Origin: an uncultured Chlamydiae bacterium
Lineage (GTDB): Bacteria > Chlamydiota > Chlamydiia > Chlamydiales > SM23-39
Assembly: GCA_963828125.1 (NCBI GenBank)
Contig: CAWHDP010000002.1
Location: 928,001 to 992,000 of the forward strand
Direction: 5' to 3'
Length of the DNA stretch: 64,000 nucleotides
The stretch's first letter is position 1. Each line of letters opens with the position of its first letter. The translations under genes and the position numbers were made by a program. Shown piece by piece: positions 22,039-56,768 of this stretch. Under the pieces are notes generated by a model. The model was not told where the DNA came from. It was given only the letters and a program-made list of their open reading frames with translations, and did no database searches.

Positions 22039-22205
22039 AAATTCAGATTAAACCAAATCAAATAACACTAAGAATACCAAGGACTTAAAGGGGAACCGAT
22101 AAGTCCTTTTTCTTTTCATCTAGGCCACTTTTGCCCAGTCTAGTGCGTAAAATTTGCGTAATTTAAACAGAGGGACTAGCCTAGTCTGGCCAATAGACAA
22201 AAACC

Positions 22206-23585
22206 GGTTCATCCGACAAATGCGTACCTGGATTCGTGTAGGTGATAAAGTCGCAATTTAAAATATTCAATATCTCGAAACCCATAAGCCTGCCTTTTCA
22301 TTGTCTTGATTTTGTTGTTTATGCCTTCTGCTGCGGCGTTCGAGATTCGATGTTTGAAATAGTTCAATAACCCCGTCTTGTATTGGTGTAATGTTTTGAC
22401 CACTCGTCTTAGCGGTTTGAGCCCTGTTGCCAAAGCATCGACTCCCCATCTGACGAGAAAATGTTCCGCCTCCTCTACAGAGTCTTTCTCCCAGAAAAGT
22501 TGGAATTGCTCCTTCAGGGAATGTGCCAAAAACAAGGGTTCATTTACAGCCAATAAGGCGCCCAATCGTGTTTGGTTTTCTAGATCCAAGTTGTCATAAT
22601 TCGTTAGGAATAAAAACCGACTGCCCTTCAGTACTTTTGCATCGGCCCCACTCAAGTTTTGCTGTTGATCTTTGCGCACCTCGTCCAGGGCTTTATTCAA
22701 TAAAGCCGTCACATGAAAATGATCAAATACCACATCTACGTTCGGCAAAAACTCTTGTGCTGCTGGGTAGTACGATTTGCTCATGTCCATAGCGATTGCT
22801 TTTAACTTTGGTGCGTGCTTTGCCAGTTTCTTGAAAAAGGGAGCTACCGCCTCTATAGTTCTACCCTCTACAGCGTGAATAATTCTCCCCGACCGTAGAT
22901 CTGTGAAAACGGTCATGTATTCATGCCCTTTCCGTATGCTGAATTCATCGACGGTAATGTATTCCAAATCTTCTAGAGGAATTGTTTTATAGAGAGCAGT
23001 CAATTTCTCTTTGTGGATCCTCTTCACGACATTCCAGCTAATTTTTAGAAATCGAGAGACATCCAAGAGAGTGCTAAAATGCAAAAGATCCAGCACGTGT
23101 GCTATCATGGAGCGCACCATTCGGAATTTGCCTTTCATAAAAGGCAATCGAGGCCACCATTTATGGCCACATTGAGGACAGGCTACTCGATGTAGCAGCA
23201 CGTTTAGAAAACAGGGCTTGCCGCCAAACGGCACCATTTTAAACTGCCGCTTTTTTTGTCCCTTGAAGATTGTGCGCGTACAGCCACATTTGCATTGAGA
23301 TGGATCGACCATTATAGCGTGGATCGTAATCGCCCCCGCTTCAAATTTGGTAGATTGGTATTGAACTCCGCTGATTCCGTATGCATGATACAAGAGAGAA
23401 GTAGACATAGAAGAAGCCTCCCGTGAGGGTGTTTGTTCAAGCTCCTTTTATATGTCTGCTTCTTTTGTTTCTACCCGCCAGTCAAGACCTTCTAGAAATC
23501 ACAACGCGCTGAATAATCAATACTTATAAAAATCTAAGGACTTAATGCCTTTCCCCTCTACAGGTACTCATTTGTCGGATGAACC
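22206..23585 (-). mobile_element. ISL3 family IS
   Basis: 25-bp imperfect IRs GGTTCATCCGACAAATG(C/A)GTACCTG; 8-bp TSD CAAAAACC (22198-22205, 23586-23593). Confidence 0.95.
22209..23408 (-). CDS. ISL3 transposase
   Basis: Zn finger CKCG..CPQC; VDEFS, AMDMS, FDHFHV, NAAAEGINNKIK. Confidence 0.95.
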   Translation of the reverse strand: MSTSLLYHAYGISGVQYQSTKFEAGAITIHAIMVDPSQCKCGCTRTIFKGQKKRQFKMVPFGGKPCFLNVLLHRVACPQCGHKWWPRLPFMKGKFRMVRSMIAHVLDLLHFSTLLDVSRFLKISWNVVKRIHKEKLTALYKTIPLEDLEYITVDEFSIRKGHEYMTVFTDLRSGRIIHAVEGRTIEAVAPFFKKLAKHAPKLKAIAMDMSKSYYPAAQEFLPNVDVVFDHFHVTALLNKALDEVRKDQQQNLSGADAKVLKGSRFLFLTNYDNLDLENQTRLGALLAVNEPLFLAHSLKEQFQLFWEKDSVEEAEHFLVRWGVDALATGLKPLRRVVKTLHQYKTGLLNYFKHRISNAAAEGINNKIKTMKRQAYGFRDIEYFKLRLYHLHESRYAFVG

Positions 23586-23660
23586 CAAAAACCTCATTTA
23601 CCTCTAGAATTTGATCTTTAAAAATCGTTGCCACGTCATTTTCTATTTAGGAGTCTACTG

Positions 23661-24683
23661 ATGAAGAAATACACCATCTTGTTTGTGATGCTAACCATTT
23701 TTTTCTTCCACAAGAAATCTTTTGGTGCTTTGTCTTCTGATATCGACTTAGAACAGATGACCCAAGATTATGTCCTTGAAGTTAAGCAATTGCACATTCC
23801 AGGTTATCCTACAGCATGTAACCCTTCTATCGCACGATGGCATGACAAGCTTATCTTAAGTTTTGACGCCTATAGCCCTGAAAAAAAAGATCAACCCGAT
23901 TTAATGGGACTTGCCATTTTGGATGAGAATTTTAATATAACTGGAAATCCTCAAATTCTCGATGTCCCGAAAAATCTTTGGCAAGATGCGCGCCTTGTCC
24001 TACTCAAGGATGACCTCTATCTAGTATTCAATGGCGCTATTGAGGGTGGAGTGCGTCGAACATTCATCACTCAAGCAGAGTTTAATGGCGTGGAGTTTTC
24101 TGTAGAGCCTCCGAGAGCATTTTTGCATTTCCCTGGAGAGAATCCAAATCAATGGGAAAGAAACTGGATTCCTTTTGTTTATAATAATTCACTCCTTTTA
24201 GCCACCCAGCTAATGCCTCATCGAATATTATGTCCTGTTTTAGGAAGTCAAAAGTGTGAAGAAATTGCATCTTTAAACTTTTCTAGCTCTTGGATGTGGG
24301 GAACTCCGAAAACGGGAACAACGGCTCATCTAGATGGGAATCATTATCTTGCCCTCTTTCATTCCATTAAAGTCATGCCTAGCATCCATTCGGATGGTAA
24401 GTCAATTCAACATTATTTCATGGGTGCCTATACTTTTGAAGATCATCCCCCTTTTCGGATAACAGCAATTAGCAAGGAGCCTATTGTCGGCAAACATTTT
24501 TATCATGGACCCGAATACACCATGTGCAAACCTTGCCGTGTTGTTTTTCCTTGTGGATATGTCATGGATGAACAATTTATTTGGGTAGTGTACGGCAGAC
24601 AAGACCATGAAATATGGATGGCAAAGCTTGAGAAGAAGGGACTCTATAGCAATATGGAACCATGCAATCTTGATATGAACTGA
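23661..24683 (+). CDS. Exported beta-propeller glycosidase-like (GH130-like) protein
   Basis: Signal peptide MKKYTILFVML; NPSI, QDARL, ERNWIPF, VVFPCG, YGRQD. Confidence 0.7.
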   Translation: MKKYTILFVMLTIFFFHKKSFGALSSDIDLEQMTQDYVLEVKQLHIPGYPTACNPSIARWHDKLILSFDAYSPEKKDQPDLMGLAILDENFNITGNPQILDVPKNLWQDARLVLLKDDLYLVFNGAIEGGVRRTFITQAEFNGVEFSVEPPRAFLHFPGENPNQWERNWIPFVYNNSLLLATQLMPHRILCPVLGSQKCEEIASLNFSSSWMWGTPKTGTTAHLDGNHYLALFHSIKVMPSIHSDGKSIQHYFMGAYTFEDHPPFRITAISKEPIVGKHFYHGPEYTMCKPCRVVFPCGYVMDEQFIWVVYGRQDHEIWMAKLEKKGLYSNMEPCNLDMN

Positions 24684-24732
24684 AAATCACTTCTTCCCTT
24701 AGAAATTTCAAATACAATGTGAATAGATGAGG

Positions 24733-25422
24733 TCATGGTGTCTTTTTTAAAAGTTCTCGTTTTGATAGTTCGTCTCGAATTTGCTGAGAAGATTCAAATA
24801 CAATACCGTCGATACCCATCTTTTTGGCGGCCTCAACATTCTCAAGTTTATCATCAATGAAGATAACTTCTTCTGGAGAGAGGGAAAGTTCTGAAAGGAG
24901 GAGTTTGTAAGCCTTTAAATCTGGTTTTAGTGCACCAATTTCTGTAGAAAGTAAGCATGGGTCAAATGGTTCATAAATCCCACAGTCTCTTAGCAAATTT
25001 GTGAATTGTCCATCTGAATTAGAAAGTAAGCCTACTCGAATATGTTGCTTCAATTCATTGACCAATTTATACATCTCTATGTCCATTCCAGCTGCGTTTC
25101 TCATAGTTGCTTGAAAGGATTGATACCAGTCGTCTGGAAGACAAATTTCGTTTTCTTTTGCAAAAGCAGTTAAGAATTTTTTATCGGATTCACCTTGCTT
25201 TAAAGCTAACAGCCTTTGCTGATTCATCTCACCAAATTCAGATTCTGACAAATGGAAATACTCTTTAATAAAATCTGCAGCTGCATTGAATACTCTTGCT
25301 GAATGATTAGCTTCTGCGGTCATAACTCCGCCAAAGTCAAATACGACTGCATGAGGTGTAGCGAAAATAGGAAATATAAAAGCTATCAAGAAAGGAATCA
25401 AAAGAAGGATGTTTTTTTTCAT
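24733..25422 (-). CDS. HAD phosphatase with signal peptide
   Basis: FDFGGV; LSN; KPD; FIDD..NV; N-terminus MKKNILLLIPFLIAFIFPIFA. Confidence 0.88.
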   Translation of the reverse strand: MKKNILLLIPFLIAFIFPIFATPHAVVFDFGGVMTAEANHSARVFNAAADFIKEYFHLSESEFGEMNQQRLLALKQGESDKKFLTAFAKENEICLPDDWYQSFQATMRNAAGMDIEMYKLVNELKQHIRVGLLSNSDGQFTNLLRDCGIYEPFDPCLLSTEIGALKPDLKAYKLLLSELSLSPEEVIFIDDKLENVEAAKKMGIDGIVFESSQQIRDELSKRELLKKTP

Positions 25423-25426
25423 AGGC

Positions 25427-25942
25427 TTATTCCATAGTCTCTTTTAAGGCATCTCTGATCTCAAAAAGAGTTTTCTCTTCAAGCTTAAATGATTTATCGT
25501 AAGGAGCATAGTTTTTCCCCCAACGGGTATCTTGAAAAATCACCCCACAAAAATCTCGAGAGTCACTATAGCGAGGAATAATATGCACGTGGATTTTAGG
25601 AGACGTGTTACTGAGCGCTGCATAATTCATTTTGTCAGGCTGAAAGAGAGTCTTTAAAGCCGTTTTTATTTCTTCACCAATTTGGAAAAACTCCTCTCTA
25701 ATTTCCCCCTGAATAGACAAAAAATCTTCAACACCAGCGTCTTCTCGTAAAAGGACAAAAACCCTACCGAGATAGCATTGGTTCTCATGAAGATATACAT
25801 CCCAATATTTGTAAGACTTTATTTTGAGTTGTTCATAATCCATAGATTCCTCAATTGATTGGGCATGTATTAATTGATGATCTTGAGAATAGGCGTTTAA
25901 AGAAGAAAATCCAAGAAGCAATAAGAAGAGCAATTTACTCAT
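25427..25942 (-). CDS. HIT family hydrolase with signal peptide
   Basis: KIHVHIIPRY (variant HxHxH); MSKLLFLLLLGFSSLNA. Confidence 0.85.
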   Translation of the reverse strand: MSKLLFLLLLGFSSLNAYSQDHQLIHAQSIEESMDYEQLKIKSYKYWDVYLHENQCYLGRVFVLLREDAGVEDFLSIQGEIREEFFQIGEEIKTALKTLFQPDKMNYAALSNTSPKIHVHIIPRYSDSRDFCGVIFQDTRWGKNYAPYDKSFKLEEKTLFEIRDALKETME

Positions 25943-26013: not shown

Positions 26014-26256
26014 TTACATTCTTGATAATAAATCTTTACTTTGACGGATAAGAGTCATCGTTTCTCGATGATGGGCTTTCGCCCGTTTTGTATATCCGCC
26101 ATGTCGAAATGGTGCTTGACGAGCACGTTCTTTTCCAGCATTTGTTATGGGTCCTTTTGCAGTTCCTCCATGCATATGACAAGTTGTTCTCCCACGCACT
26201 GCCCACTTTAAACACTGCTTGCCAGAGCGTTTACTTTTTGCCGTACATTGACTCAT
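26014..26256 (-). CDS. HGGxSTG-like small phage/satellite protein
   Basis: CTAKSKRSGKQC...CHMHGGTAKGP...RHGGYT. Confidence 0.85.
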   Translation of the reverse strand: MSQCTAKSKRSGKQCLKWAVRGRTTCHMHGGTAKGPITNAGKERARQAPFRHGGYTKRAKAHHRETMTLIRQSKDLLSRM

Positions 26257-26891
26257 AGTGATCCATGGGGTTCAATTCGAGATTTTTTCTCCACCTCTCC
26301 CCCCATCGTCGAAAGATTCTGAGCGACGATCGCTTGGCCTTCATTATGAACATGGATCACTTGTACCGTTTGCTGCCCCTTGGCTCGGTACTTGGTAAGA
26401 GCCTGCATGGTTTGAGTGGCAGCGTTGAAGAGTTTTGTTGCCAAATTGATATAGCGCTCAAGGTGATAAAACCCATCTTGAAAATGGCCTTGACGCAGAC
26501 ATTCCATGGCAGATGCCTGTAAAGCTATGAATTGCCCCGCAAGCAACGCCTCTGTTTCATCCTGCGGTCTAATCGTTGGAAGTAGACTGGCCATGCACTT
26601 GAACCGTTGCTCGAATGTTGAATCTGGCAATCCTTTCGAGAGATGCCACAATATAGCCGTAGCAAAATCTGCATCATCGGTGCCCGTGGCTTGCTTGAAA
26701 GCCGTTTCAAAGCGTTCCATCGATTCTGAATTTACAGTTGTTCCATCTGCAAGAGTAAGCGTCGATTTCTTTCCTCCAGATTGAGAGTTGTCCTTTGCAT
26801 TAAGTTGCATAGGCTTCTCTAGACGATTTTCTACTGACGATTTTGGCGAAAGTGGAGATATATCAGTTTGCTTTTTCAGCTTTTTTCCCAT
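26253..26891 (-). CDS. Satellite-associated hypothetical protein
   Basis: PQDETEALLAGQ...QQTVQVIHVHNEGQAIV; stop overlaps the HGG-motif gene start. Confidence 0.8.
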   Translation of the reverse strand: MGKKLKKQTDISPLSPKSSVENRLEKPMQLNAKDNSQSGGKKSTLTLADGTTVNSESMERFETAFKQATGTDDADFATAILWHLSKGLPDSTFEQRFKCMASLLPTIRPQDETEALLAGQFIALQASAMECLRQGHFQDGFYHLERYINLATKLFNAATQTMQALTKYRAKGQQTVQVIHVHNEGQAIVAQNLSTMGGEVEKKSRIEPHGSL

Positions 26892-26905
26892 CGCTTCATT
26901 TCCTT

Positions 26906-27134
26906 CGGTAGCATTCTAAAGCTACCGCTTAATTTACTTATTCATAGAATATTGCAACTTTCGGTAGCAGGTAGCAGTCTTTGATGCGCATCTCAACGAA
27001 TGCTTGAAACATTTATTCATCAATTTCACTAATGACTTAATCCTTCTGCTACCGTGCTACCAATTTTCATTTTTTACTTAATATCAATAAGTTACATCTT
27101 GTTTTCGGTGCTACTCTGCAGTAACACAGTAGCC
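26906..27134. repeat. Putative replication origin with GGTAGC(A) iterons
   Basis: At least six GGTAGC/GCTACC copies (26907, 26921, 26963, 26970, 27047, 27055) around AT-rich spacers, immediately downstream of the replication gene. Confidence 0.7.
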
Positions 27135-29171
27135 TTATTCACTCTCTACTTTTTCCATTGGAATCAAGATGCAACGCTGGTTCGTTCCCGTAATCTTTAC
27201 CTGCACACCCCCTATAGCCCCATCCGTTCTTGCCAATGGCCCCTTGATGTCTAAAGAGGCGTATTCGGTATCTTTAAGCAAGTGCCTTGTGATGTTCTCA
27301 CACCGAAGTGCCAAGTATCTCTTCGCCTTATGAACAACAATTTTCACGCCATGCCGCTCTAAATGTTCCTCATGCTGTCCCATTTGCAACATCTCACGCA
27401 CCGATTTCTTGTCACCATCTACAAAGATGAGACTGGCCAAAATCGTATCGAGGAGCTTATCACCATCATCTTCCGTTTGTGTTGCCGCCCACATTGGGAA
27501 GCTCTCCTCTAGTCCTTCTGGAGCAACAATCTCTAAAAGAGCTGAGGCATACATAAAATTTTCTACCGTGCGAATTTTGATTCCTGGGTGCTCTTGCAAA
27601 AGGCGGTGCCGATCTGCATTGATTTTTTGCGCTCTCTCTTCGAGGACTTCCCACATGGTAATCACGGCAGCTGTGATCTTGGCAGAGATCACTTGCCCAT
27701 CGTCATCAAATTTATCAACGGCTGGAGCTCCTTGCGGAATCTTGTTCAGCTCAAACTTGACAAGGCGCGATTCTTGCGCAGCGTCCTGCATAAACTTCTT
27801 GGGCAGGTAAATCGACCCAAACCAAGGCATGTGATGCAGGTCAAATCGATGAGCTTTATCGGAACCCGTCCCACTGGTTTTTTGTCCCCCCTTGTTGAAA
27901 AGCTTTGCCAATTCCAAAATCTCAGGAATGTGTTTGTGCTTTTCAAATTCGTCAAAGACAGAAATGCGACCGCTGTTGCCGATAGTTTGAGCGGTGGCAT
28001 GAGCGGTACTCTTGTCTAAACGCTCTACAAGTCCTCCATAAATGTGCTGTAAAATATTCTCCCAAAATGTGGTTTTCCCCGTTGCTGCAGCGCCCGTGAT
28101 ATATATCCACGGACGCCACTTCATGGCTTGCTGCACAATCGCTAACATCACAAAAGCGGTCACAAAGGCCGCCATCGAAGGAACAATCCAATTCCATTGC
28201 TTCACCTTGCTATGAATGAGATTGAAAGACTCTTTTAGGAGGACTCGATTGCCTATCGACGCCTCGAAAACCTCCCAATCCAACCATGCTGCCCCCTCGG
28301 TCTCAACGAGTTTTCCTTCAAAGAGAGGAGCTTTTAAGTAAGAAAATCGCCCTTCTTCAATAAAGCCCGCTTTCTTGCCTGAAATAATCAACCATTTGTC
28401 ATTCACCATCCAAATACCCGCTCGCAAGGGAGAAACGTCATCGATGAATCCCTTTTTGTGTGCCGCATCGATGATCGCTTCTTTCAGAGTCTTAACCGAG
28501 TCGTCGGACTGAAACCACTCCGACTCACTCCCGATGTAAAGGCGGAGTTCATCCTTGTTCAGTCGCGCTGCTGGTAATGCAATAAGTCGTCCCTCTTTCC
28601 ACAGCAAAATTTCCCGCTTTGCGTTATGTCCCAAAATGTGAAATGGCAGCATCGACTCTGCCTTCTCTTCCAGTAATTTGGCACCATTCCGTAACTGATC
28701 GATCTCATCTTGCAATTCTTTTTGTGCGGCTTCCCGCCGATCTAATTCCTCCAACTGGCTGCGCATTTTCGGATCATCGGCAGACAACCCCCGACTTTCG
28801 ATCTCTTTCTCCAACACGGCACGTTCAGTTATTAAAGCTCGATCTTCGGCGTAATGTTGCCTCTCTTTGATGTCAATCTGCGTCCATACGTTTTCGGCTT
28901 CTTGACCCCTCCTGCTTTTATCGAAGTAATCGTCCTTGTGGAGGACAATTTCAACACCGATTTGCTTACTTGCGAGCATTGTCCCGACCATATCTTGCAT
29001 CCCAATCGGACAGCTCCATGCGTCTTTCATATGCCAGTGGCAACCCGCTCTTTTTAAATCGGCATTTACAGCTTTAAGCGCCTTTGTTGCGCCCCTCTTT
29101 GGACGAATCAAAAAAGCATTTGCAGGGATTGCTTCTGGTGATGTATCCGTAGGTATAGTATTATCGTTCAT
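27135..29171 (-). CDS. Phage/satellite replication protein (P-loop NTPase, primase-helicase-like)
   Basis: Walker A GAAATGKTT, Walker B VFDEFE; likely start MNDNT. Confidence 0.75.
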   Translation of the reverse strand: MNDNTIPTDTSPEAIPANAFLIRPKRGATKALKAVNADLKRAGCHWHMKDAWSCPIGMQDMVGTMLASKQIGVEIVLHKDDYFDKSRRGQEAENVWTQIDIKERQHYAEDRALITERAVLEKEIESRGLSADDPKMRSQLEELDRREAAQKELQDEIDQLRNGAKLLEEKAESMLPFHILGHNAKREILLWKEGRLIALPAARLNKDELRLYIGSESEWFQSDDSVKTLKEAIIDAAHKKGFIDDVSPLRAGIWMVNDKWLIISGKKAGFIEEGRFSYLKAPLFEGKLVETEGAAWLDWEVFEASIGNRVLLKESFNLIHSKVKQWNWIVPSMAAFVTAFVMLAIVQQAMKWRPWIYITGAAATGKTTFWENILQHIYGGLVERLDKSTAHATAQTIGNSGRISVFDEFEKHKHIPEILELAKLFNKGGQKTSGTGSDKAHRFDLHHMPWFGSIYLPKKFMQDAAQESRLVKFELNKIPQGAPAVDKFDDDGQVISAKITAAVITMWEVLEERAQKINADRHRLLQEHPGIKIRTVENFMYASALLEIVAPEGLEESFPMWAATQTEDDGDKLLDTILASLIFVDGDKKSVREMLQMGQHEEHLERHGVKIVVHKAKRYLALRCENITRHLLKDTEYASLDIKGPLARTDGAIGGVQVKITGTNQRCILIPMEKVESE

Positions 29172-29234
29172 TATAGTCCTGTTCTTGTGGTTGATAAAAG
29201 CTCCTCCCAAGCTGTAACTTGGGAGGAACAAGGC

Positions 29235-29396
29235 TTAAAGTCCTAAGAGTTCAGCCACTCTACGCGCTTCAGTTTCGTACTTTTGTGGGCACTGACTGAG
29301 GCGCTTTTTTTGCCATTCGTAATCGATCCAAACATTTTTACGAATGTTGGGCGCGATTCGTTTGCGTCTTGATCTTTCTTGACGTTTCCTTAGCAT
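29235..29396 (-). CDS. 53-aa small protein (not in ORF track)
   Basis: AAGGAGG SD; MLRKRQERSRRKRIAPNIRKNVWIDYEWQKKRLSQCPQKYETEARRVAELLGL. Confidence 0.65.
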   Translation of the reverse strand: MLRKRQERSRRKRIAPNIRKNVWIDYEWQKKRLSQCPQKYETEARRVAELLGL

Positions 29397-29655
29397 CTTC
29401 TACCTCCTTTATGGGCATATTGGTTGTAGGTTGAGAAAGACGAGCTAAGCAGGAATCCCATGCGACCTGATCTATGAGAACTCGCCTATTGTATCTAAGA
29501 ATTGCAGGAGCAAACGGGCTTTGGTCCCCTTGTTGAATGATGGCACGTACCGCATGCTCGCTAGCGGGCCAAGCTCCTGTTTCGCGATTCTTTTGGCAGA
29601 ATTCGCGCACTGTGCGAACAATTTTTTCTAAAGAGGGTCGAATTGAACAATCCAT
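29338..29655 (-). CDS. Excisionase/AlpA-like DNA-binding protein
   Basis: AILRYNRRVLID wing motif; lies between integrase and replication gene. Confidence 0.6.
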   Translation of the reverse strand: MDCSIRPSLEKIVRTVREFCQKNRETGAWPASEHAVRAIIQQGDQSPFAPAILRYNRRVLIDQVAWDSCLARLSQPTTNMPIKEVEDAKETSRKIKTQTNRAQHS

Positions 29656-29851
29656 AATAAATCCTGTAGGTTTATAGTTACGGAAGATTAGCCGCCTAAC
29701 GCCCTTGCTTTTTAGGGCACATCAGTTAGGCATAACTTATCTTCTCTAACCCACATTAGATCAGATAGATAGGATTTAACTAAGACGTCCGAATTTAACG
29801 GACAAATAGACGACCTTTTTCATGGAGAAAAAGAATCCAAAAAAAGAGAGC

Positions 29852-47161: not shown

Positions 47162-47271
47162 CTAAAAAACGGCTCATTTTTCAATAAAACGTACTATAAC
47201 AGACAACAAGCACCTTGACACTCAATGCTGAGTATACTACAAATTCTATTTAGTCATTACCTTAATAAATT

Positions 47272-48291: not shown

Positions 48292-48567
48292 GCCATCTTT
48301 AAAATTGGAGGTGCTGTTCCTGGAATTCTGGTAAGACTTGAGTCGTACATACGTGGCACAACATATTTTTTGCGCAAAAAACTGAAAATGAGTTAGTTAA
48401 GAGTTTTTTATGGTGGCAAGCGTCAAAGTCAGGAGTGGTTGTTAGGCTGTCCAACCGGAAATAAAGAAAATCATCCAGCTGGCTGTTTGTCTGGCTGGGA
48501 AACCAGGAAGCTTTTTAGGTGGAAAGACATTTACCCAACTGATTGGAATAAAAAGATTAAGATATTT

Positions 48568-49926
48568 TTAATCGGCGCCTCCGTGGACCAAACGAATGAG
48601 AGCTTCTTTTTGATTGGCGTGTGCCAGGGATGCTGCGGCATATAGAGGTCTTGAATCAAGTTTATTGATGATAGAGTAGTTAAGAGAAGAAAAGCGGATA
48701 GCAGAATTTGACTTAGGGTGAGTCTCTAGGAAAATATGAAGGCTTCTCAACGTGTTGCCGTGACCACTTTTAACTTCGATAGGAACAATTTGATCCCCCC
48801 TTTGAATCAGATAGTCGATCTCTGCAGCGCTATTTTTTTCTTTTCTTTTCCAAAAATAGATTTCTGCTTTGTTGTCTGGGCTTGCATAGCAGATCAATTC
48901 CTGGCCAATGAATCCTTCAACCATTTCACCTCGGTTTTCAAATGCCTCTAGGGGATGTAAAAACCAATCAGACACATCAGAGCCGAGAATCGCTTGGCAA
49001 AGACCGATATCGAGATAGATAATCTTGAAAGTGTCAAAATCAACCTCCGCGCCAATAGGAATTCCTTGGCCAGAAGAGTGGCGGATCGAATGAATGATGT
49101 TTGCCCGCTCAATCAATTCTAATGCAGGGGCCAATTCCCGTTTTCGATATTCTCCATGAATTTCTCGATAGGAAAAATCCTTGCCCACAAGGTGAGGAAT
49201 TTGTCGAAATAGTTGCTCCAGGTATTTTACCTGTGCTTTTCGAGCATATTTTTCAAAATCTTGGCGGTAAGTTGCTGCAATCTGTTGCAGTACATTCAGT
49301 GCTAATGTTGGATCTTTTGTCTGAATCCATCTTGCCACAGCTTCAGGCATTCCTCCAATCGAGAGGTATTCGCCGAGGAGGTCCAAGATTTTTAGATGAA
49401 TCGCCTCCTCCATAGGAACTCCAATGGGATGATCCAGAATTTCTTTTGCGATCAAGTGATGACCAATGGCCACAAGAAATTCCAAGAAAGAAAATGGATA
49501 CATGTAAAACATAGAGATGCGCCCTACAGGAACTCCGACCTTGGCAATCGCAAATTCTAGAAGCGATCCCGCCGCAATCAGGTGAAGATTTGGCATCTCT
49601 TCATAAAAATAGCGGAGAGCTAAAATAGCGCGTGGAGCTTCTTGTACTTCGTCAAAGAAAAGAAGTGTTTCTCCAGGGATAATCGGAGTTTTCGCAAGGA
49701 GAGATAGGGATAAAATTAACCTCTCCGGGGCGAGGTCTTTCTCAAAAATAGAGGCAGCCCCCTCCAATTTTTCAAAATTGATTTCAACGAAAGATTTGAA
49801 CTGTCCCCCCAATCTTCGAACGGCATATGTTTTCCCCACCTGTCTTGCCCCACGTAATAAAAGAGGTTTGCGGAAAGGGTCGGTTTTCCATCGGTCTAGG
49901 TGGAAGTCTATGATTCTCTTAAACAT
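48568..49926 (-). CDS. AAA_14 ATPase + DUF4143 (PD-(D/E)xK-like) protein
   Basis: GARQVGKT; FFDEVQ; GGMPE; AEIDYL..IVPIEVKSG; start MFKR. Confidence 0.92.
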   Translation of the reverse strand: MFKRIIDFHLDRWKTDPFRKPLLLRGARQVGKTYAVRRLGGQFKSFVEINFEKLEGAASIFEKDLAPERLILSLSLLAKTPIIPGETLLFFDEVQEAPRAILALRYFYEEMPNLHLIAAGSLLEFAIAKVGVPVGRISMFYMYPFSFLEFLVAIGHHLIAKEILDHPIGVPMEEAIHLKILDLLGEYLSIGGMPEAVARWIQTKDPTLALNVLQQIAATYRQDFEKYARKAQVKYLEQLFRQIPHLVGKDFSYREIHGEYRKRELAPALELIERANIIHSIRHSSGQGIPIGAEVDFDTFKIIYLDIGLCQAILGSDVSDWFLHPLEAFENRGEMVEGFIGQELICYASPDNKAEIYFWKRKEKNSAAEIDYLIQRGDQIVPIEVKSGHGNTLRSLHIFLETHPKSNSAIRFSSLNYSIINKLDSRPLYAAASLAHANQKEALIRLVHGGAD

Positions 49927-50015
49927 GGCTAAATTCCAAGGTAAAAACGGATCTGTTCTGGTCGTATTCCAACCCAAATATGTATGATTTTTGGCTAAAT
50001 TCCAAGGTAAAAACG
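49926..50015. promoter_or_regulatory. 24-bp direct repeat bracketing the ATPase promoter region
   Basis: TGGCTAAATTCCAAGGTAAAAACG at 49926-49949 and 49992-50015. Confidence 0.7.
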
Positions 50016-50026
50016 ACTTTTAAGTA

Positions 50027-50070
50027 TACTGCGGCCACCCCAAAAGTGTGAATTTGGGGTGGCCGCAGTA
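50027..50070. repeat. 44-bp palindromic element, copy 2
   Basis: Same as 47043-47086; flanked by TA on both sides. Confidence 0.9.
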
Positions 50071-50074
50071 TAGC

Positions 50075-50368
50075 TCCACGAAGACTCAGCCCTATTGCTG
50101 GGCTAAGGTCAGAATCATTCGAGATGACAACAGAGACAATCTTGAGCGCCTTAATGTAGGTCTTTTGTGCTTGCAGAACTGGAGCTGCTACGTGGTCAGC
50201 ATATGCTGTAAAATAAAATACTTCATCGAGCTGTTCTGTAGACGTGTTAATGAAAATCGCAGCAAGAGCTTTAACATTAAGCCATTTTAACTCTGGGCGA
50301 CGAAGACTTGCAATTGCATGGTAAAGATTGAATCCATCGATAAGGGCAATAGTGCTATGAAGTGACAC
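50075..50368 (-). pseudogene. NYN-domain gene with internal deletion
   Basis: IDGFNLYHA...LKWLN...ALKIVS fused directly to ISNDSDLSPAI. Confidence 0.8.
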
Positions 50369-50378
50369 GAGAACCCCA

Positions 50379-50486
50379 GACAAAACAGACCACGGGTTTA
50401 TGGCCCGTGGCTTTCTCATGCGGTCCCCAAGGGATACTCATGAGGGACGATAAGGTTATCGTACTCGGCTATAGAATTTTTTGCAA
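50379..50486 (-). promoter_or_regulatory. Sigma70-type promoter and structured leader of the NYN pseudogene
   Basis: TTGCAA-17-TACGAT; leader ends gccacggg-ccataaa-cccgtggt-ctgttttgt. Confidence 0.6.
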
Positions 50487-50538
50487 AGAATGATTTCTAC
50501 AGATTTGCAGCAACTTGCTGCAAAATTCTAGGTTCTTG

Positions 50539-51838
50539 CAGGGCGATTTAACTAAAATTTTTTGATAACAGATCTGGTAACATGGCATAGTAAATACCTC
50601 ATATTTAAGGAGGTCCTATGTCACGACGTAAACCGATTGATGCCAAAATCCTAGAAGCCAGTAAGGAATTCGACGCGCATATATTTGCAGAGACTGTCAA
50701 GGGGTCGTTTTTCGATTTCCCTGATTATCGACGCAACCAAAAACGAGTCTTGTACCCCGTTTGGTACCTATCCCTTGTGATTCTCTGCGGGTTCTTTTGC
50801 GGATGCAATACTATCGAGGAAATTGCCGAATATGCCCATCTACAAGAGGAATGGTTTGCCTCGCTACTAGGAGAACCGGTTTCAGCTCCTTCCCATGGAT
50901 CGCTTTGGTGGTTTTTAGTCAAAACACCCCCGAACGCTCTCAAGAGCTATTTACAAAAATGGTTCAGTAAAATTCCTAGTTCATTGCGCGATCAACTGTT
51001 GGCGATCGACGGCAAAAGACTGAGGGGGGCTAATTTTTTGGGCCGCATTACCCATGTAGTAGAGTTGTTCGCTGCAGAAGATCGTCTATGTCTTGCCGCA
51101 GAAAAAGTCCCCGATAAAACGGTCGAGAAGAGCACACTGCCAATTATTTTGGAGCAGGTGGATGTAGAAGGTGCGATTATTTCGGGCGATGCTCATTTTA
51201 CCGTACCTGAATCAGCAGCAAAAATCGTTGATGCAAAAGCAGATTATCTGTTGGCTGTTAAAGAAAACCAGCCCACTCTTTGCGCTGAGTTGGAAAATTT
51301 TTTCGATCAGGCACATGCAGCCGAATGGGAGGAAGTCTCACATTCATTTTACCAGGAAGTCGAAAAAGGTCATGGTCGAATCGATATTCGAGAAGTACAA
51401 GTCGTAGAGGACTTGGATTGGCTGCCTAATGTTGACAGATGGAAGAACTTGGTCTGCCTGGTCGAAGTACGATCCACAAGGCAAAAAACCGGATCAACCG
51501 CAAGCGAGACGTTAAGACGGCTGTATATTTCGAGTCGTCGAGCATCTGCCAAGCATTTTGCTAAGTGGACCAGGCAGCATTGGCACGTAGAAAACAATTG
51601 CCATTGGGTAGCTGATGTGATCTTTAGAGAGGATGATGTGTTGATGGACAGAGGAAATAGCGCAGAAAATTTGGGGTTGTTTCGTCGCTTAGCTATGAAT
51701 ATGGCTGCAGTTGCAGATCCGGATAGAGGGCTTGCCTCTGTGAGACGAGCAGCGACTTTCGGTAGCGGATATCTGAAAGGAATATTGGCAAGATTTTTCT
51801 GTTCAGGCGTATCAAAAAATTTTAGTTAAATCGCCCTG
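50539..51838 (+). mobile_element. ISAs1 family IS
   Basis: 29-bp perfect IR CAGGGCGATTTAACTAAAATTTTTTGATA; 10-bp TSD TAGGTTCTTG. Confidence 0.96.
50618..51829 (+). CDS. ISAs1 transposase
   Basis: AIDGKRLRG; DA; VKENQP; EKGHGRID; RQHWHVEN..HW..DV.FRED. Confidence 0.95.
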   Translation: MSRRKPIDAKILEASKEFDAHIFAETVKGSFFDFPDYRRNQKRVLYPVWYLSLVILCGFFCGCNTIEEIAEYAHLQEEWFASLLGEPVSAPSHGSLWWFLVKTPPNALKSYLQKWFSKIPSSLRDQLLAIDGKRLRGANFLGRITHVVELFAAEDRLCLAAEKVPDKTVEKSTLPIILEQVDVEGAIISGDAHFTVPESAAKIVDAKADYLLAVKENQPTLCAELENFFDQAHAAEWEEVSHSFYQEVEKGHGRIDIREVQVVEDLDWLPNVDRWKNLVCLVEVRSTRQKTGSTASETLRRLYISSRRASAKHFAKWTRQHWHVENNCHWVADVIFREDDVLMDRGNSAENLGLFRRLAMNMAAVADPDRGLASVRRAATFGSGYLKGILARFFCSGVSKNFS

Positions 51839-51949
51839 TAGGTTCTTGCCAGTTCTGAAATGGTTAAAGAATGAAGGTTTTTGAGTTTTCTTCTTCAGAA
51901 CGAGTGGATGATGAGTGTAAGTTTTTGGTTATAAGTTGAGTGCGTATTT

Positions 51950-52005
51950 AAAAGAGGGTTGGATGCGAGGGGCATCCAACCAATTGGAGGTGGAGAGAAT
52001 CGAAC
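51950..52005 (-). other. Inverted att-like copy of tmRNA 3' end plus terminator
   Basis: 51984-52005 is the exact reverse complement of 22018-22039 (22 bp), followed on the minus strand by hairpin ggttggatgc/gcatccaacc and ctctttt. Confidence 0.9.
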
Positions 52006-52125
52006 AGGGACAGTCACAAGCTTATTTTCAATGACCGAGTTTTGTTGGTTTCACCTACTAAAATCGTCTAAAAAAGCATTTCAAAAAGATCGTCACGCAG
52101 CCCATGTTTACGCACTTTTTACGCA

Positions 52126-52944
52126 CTAAGCCAAATGAACTGAGCGCAAAAAGGTTTGGACAACAGCTAAAAAACGCTCGGGCTGGTCATACGGAACCGC
52201 GTGACCGGCTTCCGCGATCTGCACGACCTCCAAGCGTTGATTGAGCCCAGCAAGTTCTACAGCCATTTCAAGAGTGACTATTGATCCAACATCACCGACG
52301 ACGAGCAGGCTCGGAAGGTCAAGAGTGTTGATCAGCTGCGCGTAGTCAGGGTATGACGGCGTCAAAACTTCGAAGGCACGAATGCTGGTTTGAAATCTTG
52401 CCTGCACGAATAGTTCGATGACCTCGTGTGAACGGCGGCTGTGTCGAACCCGCATCTCAGCCAAGAAATCCTCCTTTGGCCGATCGAGAACTCGGCGATG
52501 CTGATCCGCAACGTCACTCTCGTAAACTTCACGCTGACGTTGCGATGTCAAGAAGGGTGGATCGACCAAGACAAGCCCTCGCAGTTGCTTGGGGTTCCGA
52601 CTGGCGACCACAGCTGCCGTCATGCCTCCCATAGAATGGCCAAGTAGCACTGGGGTGGCGAATCCGAGCGCGTCGATAAGGCCCGCGAGATCGGCAGCGA
52701 GATCGTCATAGCGATAGCCGTGGTCTGGGGTGCCGGAGTTCCCGTGGCCCCGAGCATCCGGCATGACAACGTCATAATCGTTCTCCAACGCTCGTGCTAA
52801 AGGAGCCCAGCACGCTCCACTCAACATTAGCCCATGCAGCAGAACAACAGGGGGCTTGTCGCCACCGGTTCGAAGGTAGTGTACGTCAATCCCATTTGCT
52901 TTATAGATCCCCGTGGTCCAGCCAGCCATTGTTCTCTCTATCAA
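52126..52944 (-). CDS. Alpha/beta hydrolase
   Basis: LLHG; DARGHG; GHSMGG; AGH; visibly more GC-rich than its neighbours. Confidence 0.93.
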   Translation of the reverse strand: MIERTMAGWTTGIYKANGIDVHYLRTGGDKPPVVLLHGLMLSGACWAPLARALENDYDVVMPDARGHGNSGTPDHGYRYDDLAADLAGLIDALGFATPVLLGHSMGGMTAAVVASRNPKQLRGLVLVDPPFLTSQRQREVYESDVADQHRRVLDRPKEDFLAEMRVRHSRRSHEVIELFVQARFQTSIRAFEVLTPSYPDYAQLINTLDLPSLLVVGDVGSIVTLEMAVELAGLNQRLEVVQIAEAGHAVPYDQPERFLAVVQTFLRSVHLA

Positions 52945-53000
52945 TCAAAGACTCGGTTTATAGGAAAATAAAGCATTTATTTTCTAATTTAATTCCTTAA

Positions 53001-53543
53001 TCAGGATGGTTTTAGCCAGAGGTGCTGTTCTGTAAAGCCCTCGGCTAAGGCTTTTTGAAACCACTGTTTTGTGAAATGAGGTTCGAGTTTTTTCATTTTA
53101 GGGGAAAGTCCCTGTAGATTATTTAGCAAGTCTTCCACAGATAGGCCTCTTAAGCCAAGACTTAGAATTCCTAAAGCTTTAATAGCTGCTCGATCTGCTG
53201 TTGTGAAAAAAAGGTGTTGATATTCTTTCGATATCAGCATGGCAAACGCTTCAAGTTCTCCGGCATCCAGGGCGGAGATGAAATCATTAGATAGCCTTTT
53301 AGTCAGCTTGGCAAAGTCGGCAATTTCTGCATCAATACGGGTGATCTTGCCTTGATGGACCCAGTTGGATATTAAAAAAGGTTGCTTGCCCTTGTCAGAT
53401 GAAAAAAAGAACAGCTCATCTTCAATAACTGTTCCTGGTAAAAAAATCCGATATGCATTGCACAGGCGATCCCAATAGCCTTTCTCGTGAGCATCTATTA
53501 CTACTACAGTATCAACAAGTAAGTCCTTTAATTTCTTTGTCAT
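53001..53543 (-). CDS. PIN-like protein (putative toxin)
   Basis: LLVDTVVVID; LDAGELEA; TADRAA. Confidence 0.75.
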   Translation of the reverse strand: MTKKLKDLLVDTVVVIDAHEKGYWDRLCNAYRIFLPGTVIEDELFFFSSDKGKQPFLISNWVHQGKITRIDAEIADFAKLTKRLSNDFISALDAGELEAFAMLISKEYQHLFFTTADRAAIKALGILSLGLRGLSVEDLLNNLQGLSPKMKKLEPHFTKQWFQKALAEGFTEQHLWLKPS

Positions 53544-54675
53544 TTGTCAGACACAATCCTTTTTCCGCTAGATATTGATTCAGGTCTCGGAGCTTGACGC
53601 TAAGTATTTGGGCTAGCCTGGCTTTAGATAATCTCCCTTTTTCATAAGCTAAGTATGCCAATCGGATAAAGCGATTGCCTAGAGGAGGCGCAGATGCAAA
53701 TGCCTGTTTGAATACATCGTGATCCAGTTGTGAAAATTCAGGATCTCCGAGAGCTTGATCAACTGATTTAGAGGAGATAAATTTTAAATATCGTAATCTC
53801 AATAGCATGGCCTGTTTAGATACTTGGTATTTACCTGCTAAAGCAACTATGAATGAGTAGGTAAGTTTGTTCCCCCGAACATCTAAATCGATCATTTGTT
53901 GTGGCATGAGCAATGCTGCAGCAAAGGCGTCGGCTAGCTTTTCGTTTTTGTGAAATAATTCTTCGCTGGACTGTATTTGTGAAATTAATGACTCGTTCCA
54001 TGTGATAAGATGGAAAAGCTCGTGAGCTACATTAAATGTTTGCCTCCAGCGAGCCTCTTTTTCATTAATCATAACCACAGACCCATTGTCTTCTCGATAA
54101 CAGGCTGCTGAACCATCTTCTAAAGGGCGGCTAATCAATAGCACGCCATATTCTTCTTCCAAATATTTTATTAGCAATGCTCCTGGATAATCGCCTAAAT
54201 GAAACTCTCTGTGAATTTTTTCTGCTAGTTGGTTCGCCCAGTCGATGCTGGCAGAAGAAATATCGCAACATTCTCTGGGAAGAGTTTTCATTGGTGAGGA
54301 TGGAATGGCTACCAATCTTTCAACAAGGCAATAATTTTGATAATGTTGAATGAGATTGTGTTCTTCTTTTAGTGCGATGGTTGAATCGATTGCCTTTTTG
54401 CGCCAAAGTATGGTGGGATGCTTGGAGCATTCTTTTGGTTCTTTGGAATAAAAAGACTCTGGAGAAACATTCAAGATGGTTGCGAGCTTTAGCAGCTCGT
54501 GCATTTTAATATTTTGTTCTCCGCTTTCAATTGCTACTATAGAGGCATGACTTTTCCAGCCCATTAACTCAGCTAGGTCTTGTTGTGATAAACCGCGTTG
54601 TTCGCGGATCTCACGAATCCTTCTAGCGATATCCTGGTTTCTCATAGACTGATTCCCTTGATGTAGGTCAGACAT
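53512..54675 (-). CDS. XRE HTH + ImmA/IrrE metallopeptidase
   Basis: IREQRGLSQQDLA; RQTFNVAHELFH; EKLADAFAAALLMP. Confidence 0.92.
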   Translation of the reverse strand: MSDLHQGNQSMRNQDIARRIREIREQRGLSQQDLAELMGWKSHASIVAIESGEQNIKMHELLKLATILNVSPESFYSKEPKECSKHPTILWRKKAIDSTIALKEEHNLIQHYQNYCLVERLVAIPSSPMKTLPRECCDISSASIDWANQLAEKIHREFHLGDYPGALLIKYLEEEYGVLLISRPLEDGSAACYREDNGSVVMINEKEARWRQTFNVAHELFHLITWNESLISQIQSSEELFHKNEKLADAFAAALLMPQQMIDLDVRGNKLTYSFIVALAGKYQVSKQAMLLRLRYLKFISSKSVDQALGDPEFSQLDHDVFKQAFASAPPLGNRFIRLAYLAYEKGRLSKARLAQILSVKLRDLNQYLAEKGLCLTNDKEIKGLTC

Positions 54676-54913
54676 TCTGACACAATTGGCTTTTAGATTC
54701 TATATTTTTTATACCATTTTGTCGGGTTTTCTAACACGCATCTGTTAATAATTTTTGTAATCATCTGATAGTTAGGTTGTTGTGCTGAATTTATAAAGTT
54801 AAATTTTTTACTTGTCTCAGGTAGCCGTTGACCTGTAAACAAATTATTACATCTGCGTAATTTCTGCGTAATCGACGTTTGAATTCACACTAACCGACTA
54901 ATAGTTAATTGTT

Positions 54914-55454
54914 TTGAGTTCACTAGACGACATTCGAGGAACGGTCAGATCTATGCGCGCGGTCAAAACGGAAAACCTGATCAAATACCTGAATGTGAAA
55001 ATTCAGGGGTGGGTCAATTATTACCGTCACTGCGTGGCAAAAGCGACGTTTAACTACTTAGACAACAGCATATTCTGGATAGTTTGGAAGTGGGCCAAAA
55101 GGCGACATCAGAACAGGGGGGCATCCTGGATCCGGAAAAGGTATTACACTACCTTGGGACTCAGAAAGTGGTGCTTCTACTCGAAGATGAAAGCGGGAAA
55201 ACAAGAATCCCGTATTCTTCTCACTCTGGCACAACACACAAAGATCGAAAGACACGTGAAGGTCAGAGCGGAAGCTTCGCCGTATGATCCCGATTTTAAG
55301 GAATATTTCATAAAACGGGAAAGAGAAAAGATGAGAAAAAAAAATGATAGCCGGGTGATATGAGCCTTAAGAGAGGCTTGAGCCGTATGATGGGAAACTA
55401 TCACGTACGGTTCTTAGAGGAGGAAACTAGGGCAACCTAGTTTCCTTACTCAAC
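54914..55454 (+). mobile_element. 5'-truncated group II intron (maturase X domain, DV, DVI)
   Basis: LNVKIQGWVNYYRH...WKWAKRRH...SPYDPDF; GAGCCGTATGATGGGAAACTATCACGTACGGTTC; ends CTTACTCAAC. Confidence 0.9.
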
Positions 55455-55519
55455 TTTTTCCCATTTCGAAATATTAAAAGATTGTTGTAGCATCGTGCGC
55501 AGAAATTTTAGAGGTCCGG

Positions 55520-56644
55520 ATGAGAAGTTGCCTGTTACTTATGATAAGCCTATTTTTGACGACCCATGTCGCTAATGCCCAGGCAGAAAGCTGGCAAATT
55601 GGCCCCTTTATTCGTGTAGATGACGCCAATCCCATTATTAGACCAGATGAGAGTTCCGTTTTCCTCTGTCCCGTTCAAAATAAATTGGTGCATTGGGAGT
55701 GTGATCACACATTCAATCCAGCGGCAGTTGTGAAAGATGGGAAAGTCTATCTTTTCTATCGCGCCGAAGATGATTTTGGAGAGGGGATTGGCCAGCATAC
55801 TTCCCGCCTTGGAATAGCGGAGAGCGACGACGGCGTGCATTTCACACGGAAATCGGAACCTGTCCTTTACCCAAATGTGGATTCTCACCGTTCTTTCGAA
55901 TGGCCCGGCGGGTGCGAAGATCCTCGGATTGTGCAAAGAGAAGATGGAACCTATGTAATGACCTACACTCAGTGGACCTATCGTAACAAAGGGGTTCCCA
56001 ATGCGGCCCGCAATAAGCCCCTTCTTGGCATAGCCACGTCACGAGATCTTTTTCATTGGGAAAAGCAGGGATATGCTTTTGCTAATTCTCGAATGGAACC
56101 CTTCCATTCCAAATCAGGCTCTATTGTTTGTAAGCGGGTAGGAGACTCTTTAATTGCGGCGAAAATCAAAGACAAATATTGGATGTATTGGGGAGCAGGA
56201 CCCCTTTTTGGGGCTACTTCGGATGATCTCATTGCTTGGGAACCGATCGTCGATGAGTATGGGGATCTTCTACTTGTGTTGGATAAAAGACTGGGCAAGT
56301 TTGACAGTCGGCTGGTCGAGGCAGGCCCTCCTGCATTAATCACCGACAAAGGGATTCTTCTGCTCTACAATGGGAAAAATGCTGCCGTGGATGGAGATCC
56401 TACGATCAGCATAGGGGCTTATGCAGCGGGGCAAGTACTATTCGATTTAACCGACCCTACTCGTGTAATTATGAGGACGGATGAAAGCTTTTTTAAACCG
56501 GAAAGGGAGTATGAGAAAACGGGCCAATATAAAAATGGCACTGTTTTCATCGAAGGGTTAGTTCCTTTTCACGGGCGGTGGCTTCTCTACTATGGGACAG
56601 CGGATTCAGCAGTGGGTGTTGCCATTTGTGAGACAGTAGAATAA
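55520..56644 (+). CDS. GH130-family glycosidase/phosphorylase with signal peptide
   Basis: FNPAAV; YRAED; GCEDPRI; EAGPP; FIEGL; YYGTAD. Confidence 0.9.
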   Translation: MRSCLLLMISLFLTTHVANAQAESWQIGPFIRVDDANPIIRPDESSVFLCPVQNKLVHWECDHTFNPAAVVKDGKVYLFYRAEDDFGEGIGQHTSRLGIAESDDGVHFTRKSEPVLYPNVDSHRSFEWPGGCEDPRIVQREDGTYVMTYTQWTYRNKGVPNAARNKPLLGIATSRDLFHWEKQGYAFANSRMEPFHSKSGSIVCKRVGDSLIAAKIKDKYWMYWGAGPLFGATSDDLIAWEPIVDEYGDLLLVLDKRLGKFDSRLVEAGPPALITDKGILLLYNGKNAAVDGDPTISIGAYAAGQVLFDLTDPTRVIMRTDESFFKPEREYEKTGQYKNGTVFIEGLVPFHGRWLLYYGTADSAVGVAICETVE

Positions 56645-56692
56645 AAAAAGGCCCGGGGTTTTCCCGGGCCTTGTGTTTTGGAAGTGGAGAGA
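56643..56692 (-). other. Second inverted, degenerate tmRNA 3'-end copy plus bidirectional terminator
   Basis: 56676-56692 reverse complement TCTCTCCACTTCCAAAA matches 22025-22041 at 16/17; hairpin aaggcccggg/cccgggcctt. Confidence 0.7.
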
Positions 56693-56768
56693 CGCATTCA
56701 GAACGTTTTCCTCTCGAATTTACGCACTTTTTACGCATTTAAGTAATCTTTTGCAGACTCTAGCGACC

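Follow-up and report, generated by a model that had tools for sequence, protein, structure and literature searches.

Paired TGCGTAA repeats behind a chlamydial transfer-messenger RNA gene: probable integrase arm sites in a decayed and likely partly inverted stack of small elements

The stretch analysed here (the window) comprises 64,000 nucleotides of an uncultured Chlamydiae bacterium (assembly GCA_963828125.1, contig CAWHDP010000002.1, positions 928,001 to 992,000). It carries the transfer-messenger RNA (tmRNA) gene ssrA, a tyrosine integrase gene (int) and six exact copies of the paired repeat TGCGTAA-N4-TGCGTAA (S1 to S6), for which 100 dinucleotide shuffles gave an expectation of 0.00. 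The original prediction had placed all six sites between open reading frames (ORFs) and none before the tmRNA, and had taken them for arm-type sites through which one integrase served integron-like cassettes built on a tmRNA core; their coordinates, strands, intergenic location and absence from the window 5' of the tmRNA were all confirmed. In what follows, P0001 is the window integrase, G000 the source genome, other G-numbers relatives, L-numbers fetched loci, and C1 and C2 contigs. The principal features were the following.

21671..22038, plus strand: tmRNA gene (ssrA), the target gene (ARAGORN, Rfam).
22014..22028, plus strand: attL core in the tmRNA T-arm, GAGA, 7-nt overlap and TCTC; 22-nt tail repeated at 52005-51984.
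22144..22161, plus strand: S1, M2-type arm pair 105 nt after the core; left end of element E1.
30960..32042, minus strand: tyrosine integrase, 360 amino acids.
32067..32095, minus strand: predicted int promoter TTGTCA-17-TACACT, 4 nt after the core mimic.
32100..32114, no strand: core mimic (core') GAGA-N7-TCTC, with an overlap unlike that of the tmRNA.
32175..32192, minus strand: S2, M3-type arm pair directed towards core' and int.
33329..33346, minus strand: S3, M1-type arm pair, left end of a second, oppositely oriented element, core lost.
51984..52005, minus strand: attR-type tmRNA tail, 22/22 nt.
52108..52125, minus strand: S4, M1-type arm pair 102 nt before the tail (same spacing in G257).
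54854..54871, plus strand: S5, M3-like arm pair with no core mimic after it.
56720..56737, minus strand: S6, M3-type arm pair without core mimic.

S1 lay 105 nt past the tmRNA, as had been claimed, S2 was 132 nt upstream of the int start, and S4 adjoined the stop codon of a hydrolase gene. All six sites fell inside a low-GC stretch that begins at the tmRNA (21671-22038), and tolerating up to two mismatches added a single window site, within the RHS gene. The genome-wide count that the original prediction had called for showed a rare motif: the 2.37-Mb genome held seven exact N4 pairs, six of them in the window and the seventh at C1:364869 (with a 1-mismatch partner at C1:366273), and pairs with spacers of 0-3 or 5-11 nt were absent genome-wide. 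Copies of the tmRNA 3' end do exist beside S4 and S6, both on the minus strand and thus inverted relative to the tmRNA (52005-51984 and 56692-56679); the one beside S6, merely 14 nt long with one mismatch, belonged to a different end type and did not stand as claimed. Taken together with the results below, we consider it probable that the repeats are arm sites of a lambda-like tyrosine integrase carried by small chlamydial elements that insert into tRNA and tmRNA genes, and that the window is a decayed, partly inverted stack of such elements.

P0001 (PF00589, 97 bits) possessed the intact catalytic-type residues of a tyrosine recombinase (R209, K234, H298, R301, H324, and Y333); across 26 relatives H324 was nearly invariant and the other five were invariant. 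HP1 integrase was its best relative of solved structure. The N-terminal 60 residues were conserved, and Int_N matched 12 of the 26 members (position of the match not shown). In a quick tree of loci picked by motif or by likeness to P0001, the 32 integrases with the motif upstream formed one clade (support 91), within which the tmRNA-targeting ones made up a clade of 12 rows (support 100); the motif label was also borne by three rows that fell outside the clade, owing to an M1/M2-type arm within 420 nt that was read as belonging to a neighbouring element. Most of 17 other integrase copies examined in the genome owned a different repeat pair of 11-nt period (TGGGAC, TGCCGGA, GACACA, TGGACCA, CGGTGCA, TGCACA, and GTGCCAAAT), and one such repeat, GTGGACCA, was near the P2 arm consensus tgTGGaCa as given in PMC3448106. 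Since most other integrases carry their own pairs, paired repeats appear generic to the integrase family, TGCGTAA being one specificity. To judge by these associations, the repeats behave as arms tied to the clade of the window integrase, in agreement with the original prediction, which was also right about the core, located in the tmRNA T-arm (GAGA-GTTCGAT-TCTC, 7-nt overlap). In all, G000 contained roughly 20 genes or gene pieces of related integrases, located for the most part at tRNA genes (C2:1092494, C2:1678061, C2:563979-605215, and C1:420992-444251), and several of them were piled up at fragments of tRNA-Met(cat).

A helical spacing of direct repeats would be in keeping with winged-helix proteins as well. 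The repeat could then be an operator or iteron bound by some other protein of the element (the 105-aa Xis-like, the 373-aa or the primase protein), and P0001 indeed gave no match to a named arm-binding domain; but the repeat goes with the integrase clade even though nearby genes for the 373-aa and primase proteins are in many cases dissimilar or missing, and its fixed distances on both sides of the core resemble the two 11-bp arm pairs of mv4 (bioRxiv 2023.11.06.565760). We give this explanation hardly any credence.

The motif was found in 49 of 102 family genomes (reversed control, 0) and in 154 of 401 phylum genomes (control in 6, counted from the table), and it was not found in any of 30 genomes from a family with small genomes, probably Chlamydiaceae. 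Among 185,579 genomes, an extended 26-nt pattern had 104 matches; the 80 viewed were labelled chlamydial, Verrucomicrobia or "uncultured bacterium", plus one Acidobacteria bin. A tmRNA tail lay at most 600 nt away in 64 of 80 genome-scan loci vs. 4 of 2000 control windows. A close integrase (E <= 1e-120) occurred in only 23 of the 401 genomes, at this strict threshold and with at most five candidates scored per genome, and arms without a close integrase appear common across the phylum.

Sites were of three kinds. Among 201 unique sites in the fetched loci (classes being defined on the same data), 132 shared the upstream context CAGTTT..TCCAGTCTAG, 57 had an A/T-rich one (M3), and 12 fitted neither. 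The group of 132 was divided by position: M1 points at the core, ~57 or ~102 nt before a tail on the same strand or, in an alternative layout, ~98 nt from a tail on the opposite strand with a terminator between, and M2 lies 105-120 nt beyond the core, pointing away. An integrase start was present 110-175 nt downstream of 31 of the 57 M3 sites vs. 0 of the 132 others. Whole elements (G257, G248) displayed the order tmRNA core, M2, cargo, primase-like gene, small ORF, 373-aa-type ORF, int, M3, cargo, M1, core; the mirror-image order was seen in G375 and in tRNA-Tyr and tRNA-Leu elements. Because of these layouts, M1 and M2 are taken as direct repeats that surround the predicted attP's core. Left ends like that of S1 (core, then arm) also occurred in G100, G217, G257, and G013, and insertion was found at tmRNA, tRNA-Tyr, tRNA-Leu, and tRNA-Met genes. 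The view of one integrase acting on six equivalent sites was therefore not supported: the window holds three positional classes from at least three separate elements, and the S6 tail and the end after S4's tail belong to a serine-recombinase family.

Some ends in relatives departed from these layouts. Ends of tRNA-Met type at L075:3044-3088 and L085:3320 and 6390 had a third, degenerate heptamer pair right after the M1 pair; L067 (G230) contained three tandem tRNA-Leu(taa) copies with an arm pair near each and no P0001-like integrase in 14 kb; and at L071:6318-6940 (G317) a tmRNA-clade integrase accompanied an M1 ~38 nt from the called tmRNA end, no standard tail and the mimic CAGA/TCTT, possibly reflecting a different sub-site.

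The M3 sites next to int were followed by a sequence resembling the core. The pattern xxGA-N7-TCxx appeared ~60 nt after M3 (70 nt in five cases) at 32 of 32 int-adjacent sites against 1.0 in shuffles, and its half-sites followed the target RNA while the 7-nt middle was variable. The match was exact in nine of ten tmRNA cases (T-arm, GAGA/TCTC), five of six for tRNA-Tyr (anticodon arm, GGGA/TCCC), one of three for tRNA-Leu (GGGA/TCCC), and five of ten for tRNA-Met (CGGA/TCCG). A promoter-like TTG...17...TA..T began 3-4 nt after core' in all 11 tmRNA-clade elements, the promoter pattern being present after core' in 18 of 32 cases overall (1.2 in shuffles). Two more distant integrases of G000 (48 and 43% identity) displayed a mimic of their own targets together with their own arms; these two cases (tRNA-Leu and tRNA-Phe) suggest that the mimic extends beyond the TGCGTAA clade. 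Following the example of KplE1 IntS, we read M3 plus core' as an operator standing in for attL. A location of S2 beside a fragment of another tRNA was rejected, as no tRNA 3' end of the genome matched there and the site is the core mimic. Among top-ranked matches and main texts, no literature was found on the TGCGTAA motif, these chlamydial elements or an internal target-mimic site; what would be novel is a conserved third arm pair whose core mimic fits the target and adjoins the int promoter, and which is also a point of breaking and re-joining.

The overlap and the spacer on the arm side of core' were highly variable. This would suit a view of core' plus M3 as a passive relic of old tandem accretion, a chimeric internal att with no regulatory role at which breaks would stem from residual recognition; accreted elements are known to have chimeric attI sites between them that are able to recombine (PMC5704250). 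Such a relic is nevertheless very improbable: the distance to the conserved promoter pattern stays constant over four targets and among integrases as low as 51% in identity, the half-sites vary according to the target, and the two distant G000 integrases share the mimic with arms of their own.

Core' was also a place where sequences parted. In 11 tmRNA-clade elements the identity on the int side of core' tracked integrase identity (rho 0.42) whereas that on the arm side did not (rho 0.06), and close element pairs, which are not independent, showed 0.84-0.95 on the int side vs. 0.52-0.69 on the arm side. Integrase-less M3 sites kept GAGA at +59 to +63 in 20 of 21 cases (chance 0.5), and 18 of these 20 had lost the int leader directly after the core, at 15 distinct junctions; this set includes L023:472 from the unclassed sites and leaves out the tRNA-type M3 of L057, L059, and L075, L074 and L081 (M1-type by their downstream terminator) and S6, with S5 and S6 shown apart. 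The partners of the joints differed. An M1-core-M3 junction was present in G217, with attR as partner and the tmRNA's own overlap, and in G040, with an M1 end as partner; M3-core-M3 junctions occurred in G044, G045, and G051. In G084 core' was fused with a site inside rhuM that shares 6 of 7 overlap bases and is intact in the window (33912-33926), and a G004 site kept the overlap of G125's intact core' with the right half replaced.

An M3-bounded fic unit was found in five genomes (G006, G217, G040, G216, and G000 on C1) in different settings, and in the first three the shared homology begins at the TCTC of the core. Cargo slots (n = 23) contained 1-10 ORFs each, many on both strands, and their content (nucleases, toxin-antitoxin pairs, Fic, GNAT/acetyltransferase, and Cass2/GyrI-like genes) differed even between elements with integrases >90% alike. 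Whole M1...M2 units without a P0001-like integrase also occur (e.g., L079). The earlier idea that integrase-less units gather at ssrA was thus borne out, as they accumulate in many relatives and the fic unit recurs in different settings.

As sequences, the junctions are compatible with cassette circles and also with a deletion inside tandem elements. Neither excised circles nor alternative joints occurred among the listed contig junctions, assembled contigs giving evidence neither way. If core' were a dedicated second attachment site, the M1-cargo-M3 slot would excise as an integrase-less circle and re-insert at att cores in either orientation, and one integrase would build and shuffle whole arrays. 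M1-core-M3, the circle junction so predicted, does stand in the chromosomes of G217 and G040, and M3-core-M3 in three genomes; the varied settings of the fic unit, its homology starting at the core TCTC in three genomes, the changing cargo beside integrases >90% alike and the overlap mismatch tolerated by IntDOT (PMC2817482) would all suit it. Tandem integration of a second whole element followed by deletion between core and core' gives the same junctions, however; a full M1-core end is present in two of the five fic units (G006 and G216) and none is shown cleanly inserted at a new site, slots hold 1-10 ORFs on both strands, and in the window only S4-S5 fits such a unit, with an S5 that has no core'. 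Dedicated cassette shuffling is for these reasons unlikely, and integron-like active shuffling in the window is unproven. A somewhat better, though still doubtful, possibility is a phylum-wide, arm-based gene-capture system giving integron-like arrays without attC or IntI, in which core' would act as a second, overlap-tolerant att site, slot circles would re-insert at att cores in either orientation, and autoregulation and exchange would stem from one site.

The remaining features of the window, relevant to its history, were these.

22206..23585, minus strand: ISL3-family insertion sequence (IS) within E1 (Pfam), with several near-identical genome copies.
23628..25942, no strand: E1 cargo slot 1, GH130-like, HAD, and HIT genes.
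26014..30973, minus strand: conserved E1 backbone, HGGxSTG protein, 212-aa ORF, 698-aa primase-like gene, 105-aa ORF, and 373-aa ORF.
32307..33113, plus strand: E1 cargo slot 2, NYN nuclease (PADLOC HEC-09).
33205..33267, plus strand: deletion scar, M1 upstream context fused at ATTTT to the terminator normally after the tmRNA tail (compared with L087 and L066).
33498..34160, minus strand: rhuM-family gene, 3'-truncated, containing the GAGA-N7 site 33912-33926.
34223..34238, plus strand: serine-type right-end arm of the rhuM unit; putative left inversion breakpoint.
34239..56696, no strand: putatively inverted block with RHS, sulfatase, outer-membrane proteins, ATPase, S4-S5 unit, and GH130.
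50539..51838, plus strand: ISAs1-like IS with intact 10-nt target duplication.
51847..51983, minus strand: left end of a serine-recombinase-type unit (GTTCTGAA ... TTCAGAAC).
52126..54675, minus strand: cargo of an integrase-less M3-cargo-M1 unit, helix-turn-helix/M78 protein, 180-aa ORF, and alpha/beta hydrolase.
54923..55454, plus strand: group II intron 3' remnant (Rfam), replacing the DNA after S5 from +51.
56679..56712, minus strand: serine-type arm and 14-nt tmRNA tail; putative right inversion breakpoint 56696/56697.
56769..57428, minus strand: histidine-phosphatase gene beside S6.
62450..62590, plus strand: fic 3' remnant; fic fills the M3-M1 slot in other genomes.

E1 was nearly whole. 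The first 1.1 kb of its slot 1 were 81% identical to the same slot in G217, the segment 26063-32211 was 88% identical to G100, whose slot holds other genes, and the 105-aa ORF is putatively Xis-like. A contig from another study departed from the window sequence exactly at 32114. The attR arm (M1) and core of E1 are, from the fused contexts at 33205-33240, deleted at the scar. For the S3 element, whose core was lost by a small deletion, a run X4 contig joins the tmRNA end directly to 33238; S5 and S6 had no cognate core. Hydrolase and arm of the S4-S5 unit were 90% identical in G021, and its other cargo was not found in the 102 family genomes. Segments between the window sites did not vary as clean units, contrary to the expectation of the original prediction, whose proposal of accretion at ssrA was supported, the window being one nearly whole element plus remnants.

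Part of this stack involves a second kind of recombinase. Many tmRNA tails in relatives were preceded by AAAAGTTCTGAATGCR, and in G257 ends of the AAAAGTTCTGAATGCR type bound an element with a large serine recombinase, the one whole element on which the assignment of serine-type (X-type) ends rests; the end after S4's tail and that beside S6 were both of this type. In the window no serine recombinase was found, the single match of the genome lying at tRNA-Leu(caa). The rhuM unit of G257 and G084 ends in a serine-type arm and then a tmRNA tail. What comes after that arm in the window (34223-34238) is foreign DNA, and a tail stands behind a 15/16-identical arm on the other strand (56712-56697). 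Because the two arms are 15/16 identical with flanks swapped with respect to G257 and G084, a ~22-kb inversion of 34239-56696 is likely. Tails lay all on one strand in 20 of 20 relative loci with at least two tails (some of these loci overlap), and undoing the inversion would bring all three window tails onto one strand, as in relatives. A mis-join at an IS as the cause of the inverted tails was disfavoured, the target duplications of ISAs1 and IS66 being intact. Contigs of run X1, which may be the source of the assembly, spanned 26524-34628, 51811-54981, and 56543-57743, and none spanned the whole island.

Other observations concern tails and neighbouring genes. Thirteen tmRNA tails were counted within 16 kb at L042:3193-19420 (G021), where a run of ~216-nt units ending in GCCGCGAGGGCT plus tail represents a third, gene-less end type. 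Two more NYN/HEC-09-like fragments in inverted orientation were present at 49919-50419 and 60979-61135, and the ATPase at 48568-49977 matched PADLOC PDC-S01. The RHS protein (2818 aa, 35086-43542) was paralogous to three long loci in other parts of the genome (80, 80, and 69% DNA identity), and small ORFs lay downstream. A 48-49-nt palindrome at 47043-47091 and 50027-50075 had many dozens of genome copies, similar to a miniature inverted-repeat transposable element or a repetitive extragenic palindrome. After the island, a C58-peptidase-like ORF and a 731-aa ORF occupied 61271-64845 (beyond the window end), and low GC persisted to ~72 kb in window coordinates, with glycosyltransferase-like genes there.

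Under the arm-site explanation, an intact element carries three arm pairs, with M1 and M2 as direct repeats flanking the core ~100 nt on each side (window type), and by analogy with lambda, P2, and mv4 the integrase would use M1 and M2 for integration and excision at the tmRNA T-arm. M3 faces core', whose half-sites copy the target RNA with a different overlap and which ends 3-4 nt before the predicted -35 of int, and integrase bound to M3 and core' may repress its own promoter. The same complex may occasionally cut core' and join it to an att core, another core' or a look-alike, as the products shown at the junctions suggest. Such cutting would remove the integrase-replication module and leave M1-cargo-M3 units that lack an integrase and lie either in tandem or head to head. 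For the window, the explanation takes S1-S2 as E1 with its M1 and attR deleted, S3 as a second element's left end, the S5-S4 segment as a unit without integrase and S6 as one more M3 remnant, with serine-recombinase elements sharing the tmRNA tail interleaved in the stack.

Several points weigh against this explanation. The core' overlap differs from that of the tmRNA, and most tyrosine integrases need identical overlaps (bioRxiv 2023.11.06.565760), IntDOT being an exception in which an overlap mismatch can be tolerated (PMC2817482). The window's own S5 breaks at +51 and S6 at ~+23, neither at core'; the C1 fic unit has degenerate ends with no crossing at the core; and a tmRNA element of G207 has int without the exact M3 motif. 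Residues 1-60 of P0001 matched no named arm-binding domain in Pfam and PDB sequence searches. A relative with an un-inverted S6 region gave no exact match in metagenome contigs and just short motif-level matches in the 102 family genomes. The loci used to set up the site classes and the core' pattern were also those later counted, the relatives are not independent, and selection of loci relied on the motif or on similarity to the window integrase.

Environmental Chlamydiae live inside cells and are believed to be shielded from gene flow; even so, the arm signature was present in more than a third of the sampled genomes. If the explanation is true, a target-matched mimic at the int promoter accounts for self-control of the integrase when cargo separates int from att, and integrase-less islands at ssrA arise at a defined site and not solely by random decay. 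Base-level definitions now exist for the three arm types, the core and naturally occurring recombination products, which makes the model testable in vitro, and a single arm sequence serving four RNA targets is useful to integrase engineering. Arm pairs, tandem accretion and integrase-less islands at ssrA were known already (PMC5704250, PMC3146451).

Like integrons, the chlamydial elements have a variable cargo slot and, next to it and immediately upstream of int, a recombination-like site; their cargo includes GNAT, Cass2/GyrI-like, and toxin-antitoxin genes. The integron-like description fails on integrase and cassette anatomy: P0001 scored 34.5 bits with TIGR02249 (cut-off 265), the 23 slots held 1-10 ORFs, many on both strands, instead of single-gene cassettes in one orientation, and the element ends consist of an arm and a core in place of attC hairpins (no attC model was applied). 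Likeness to phage-inducible chromosomal islands and P4-like satellites extends to int, a small Xis-like ORF, a primase-like gene (the 698-aa ORF matched a PHROG primase, E 1e-11), defence-type cargo, and a tRNA-like insertion site. Pipolins are bimodular, and the consulted part of PMC11551731 names no internal site. Cis-mobilizable elements and tandem accretion produce island stacks behind ssrA or tRNA genes bounded by 3'-end repeats (PMC5704250), and 15 of 31 ssrA islands of Dehalococcoides are without an integration module (PMC3146451). The S5-S4 unit, with a tail, no integrase and att-type ends, conforms to this type, as does L079; in contrast to those islands as described there, chlamydial integrase loss maps to one built-in site. 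The Dehalococcoides serine integrase (PMC3146451) parallels the X-type ends interleaved in the window.

KplE1 IntS represses itself through arm and core sites of attL that overlap or abut the int promoter (PMC2951348), and the chlamydial elements likewise have integrase arm and core sites at the int promoter. In KplE1 the real attL acts there, whereas the chlamydial elements would use a separate core copy, so that cargo can lie between att and int, and int at either end; in E1, int is 10 kb from attL and its promoter adjoins core'. The att sites themselves resemble those of mv4, P2/186/HP1, and lambda in the 7-nt overlap between inverted half-sites and the direct-repeat arms on both sides. The mv4 attP has a 7-bp overlap and two pairs of adjacent 11-bp direct-repeat arms at its ends (bioRxiv 2023.11.06.565760), and P2/186 sites have two or more direct repeats at each side of the core (PMC3448106). 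As in heterobivalent systems, the tail is repeated at the far end in G257, G248, and G375 (E1's attR being deleted), and M1 and M2 keep fixed distances on the core's two flanks. Unlike mv4, P2, and lambda, the chlamydial elements sit in both orientations at the tmRNA and carry a third arm pair with a core mimic inside the element, up to several kb from att.

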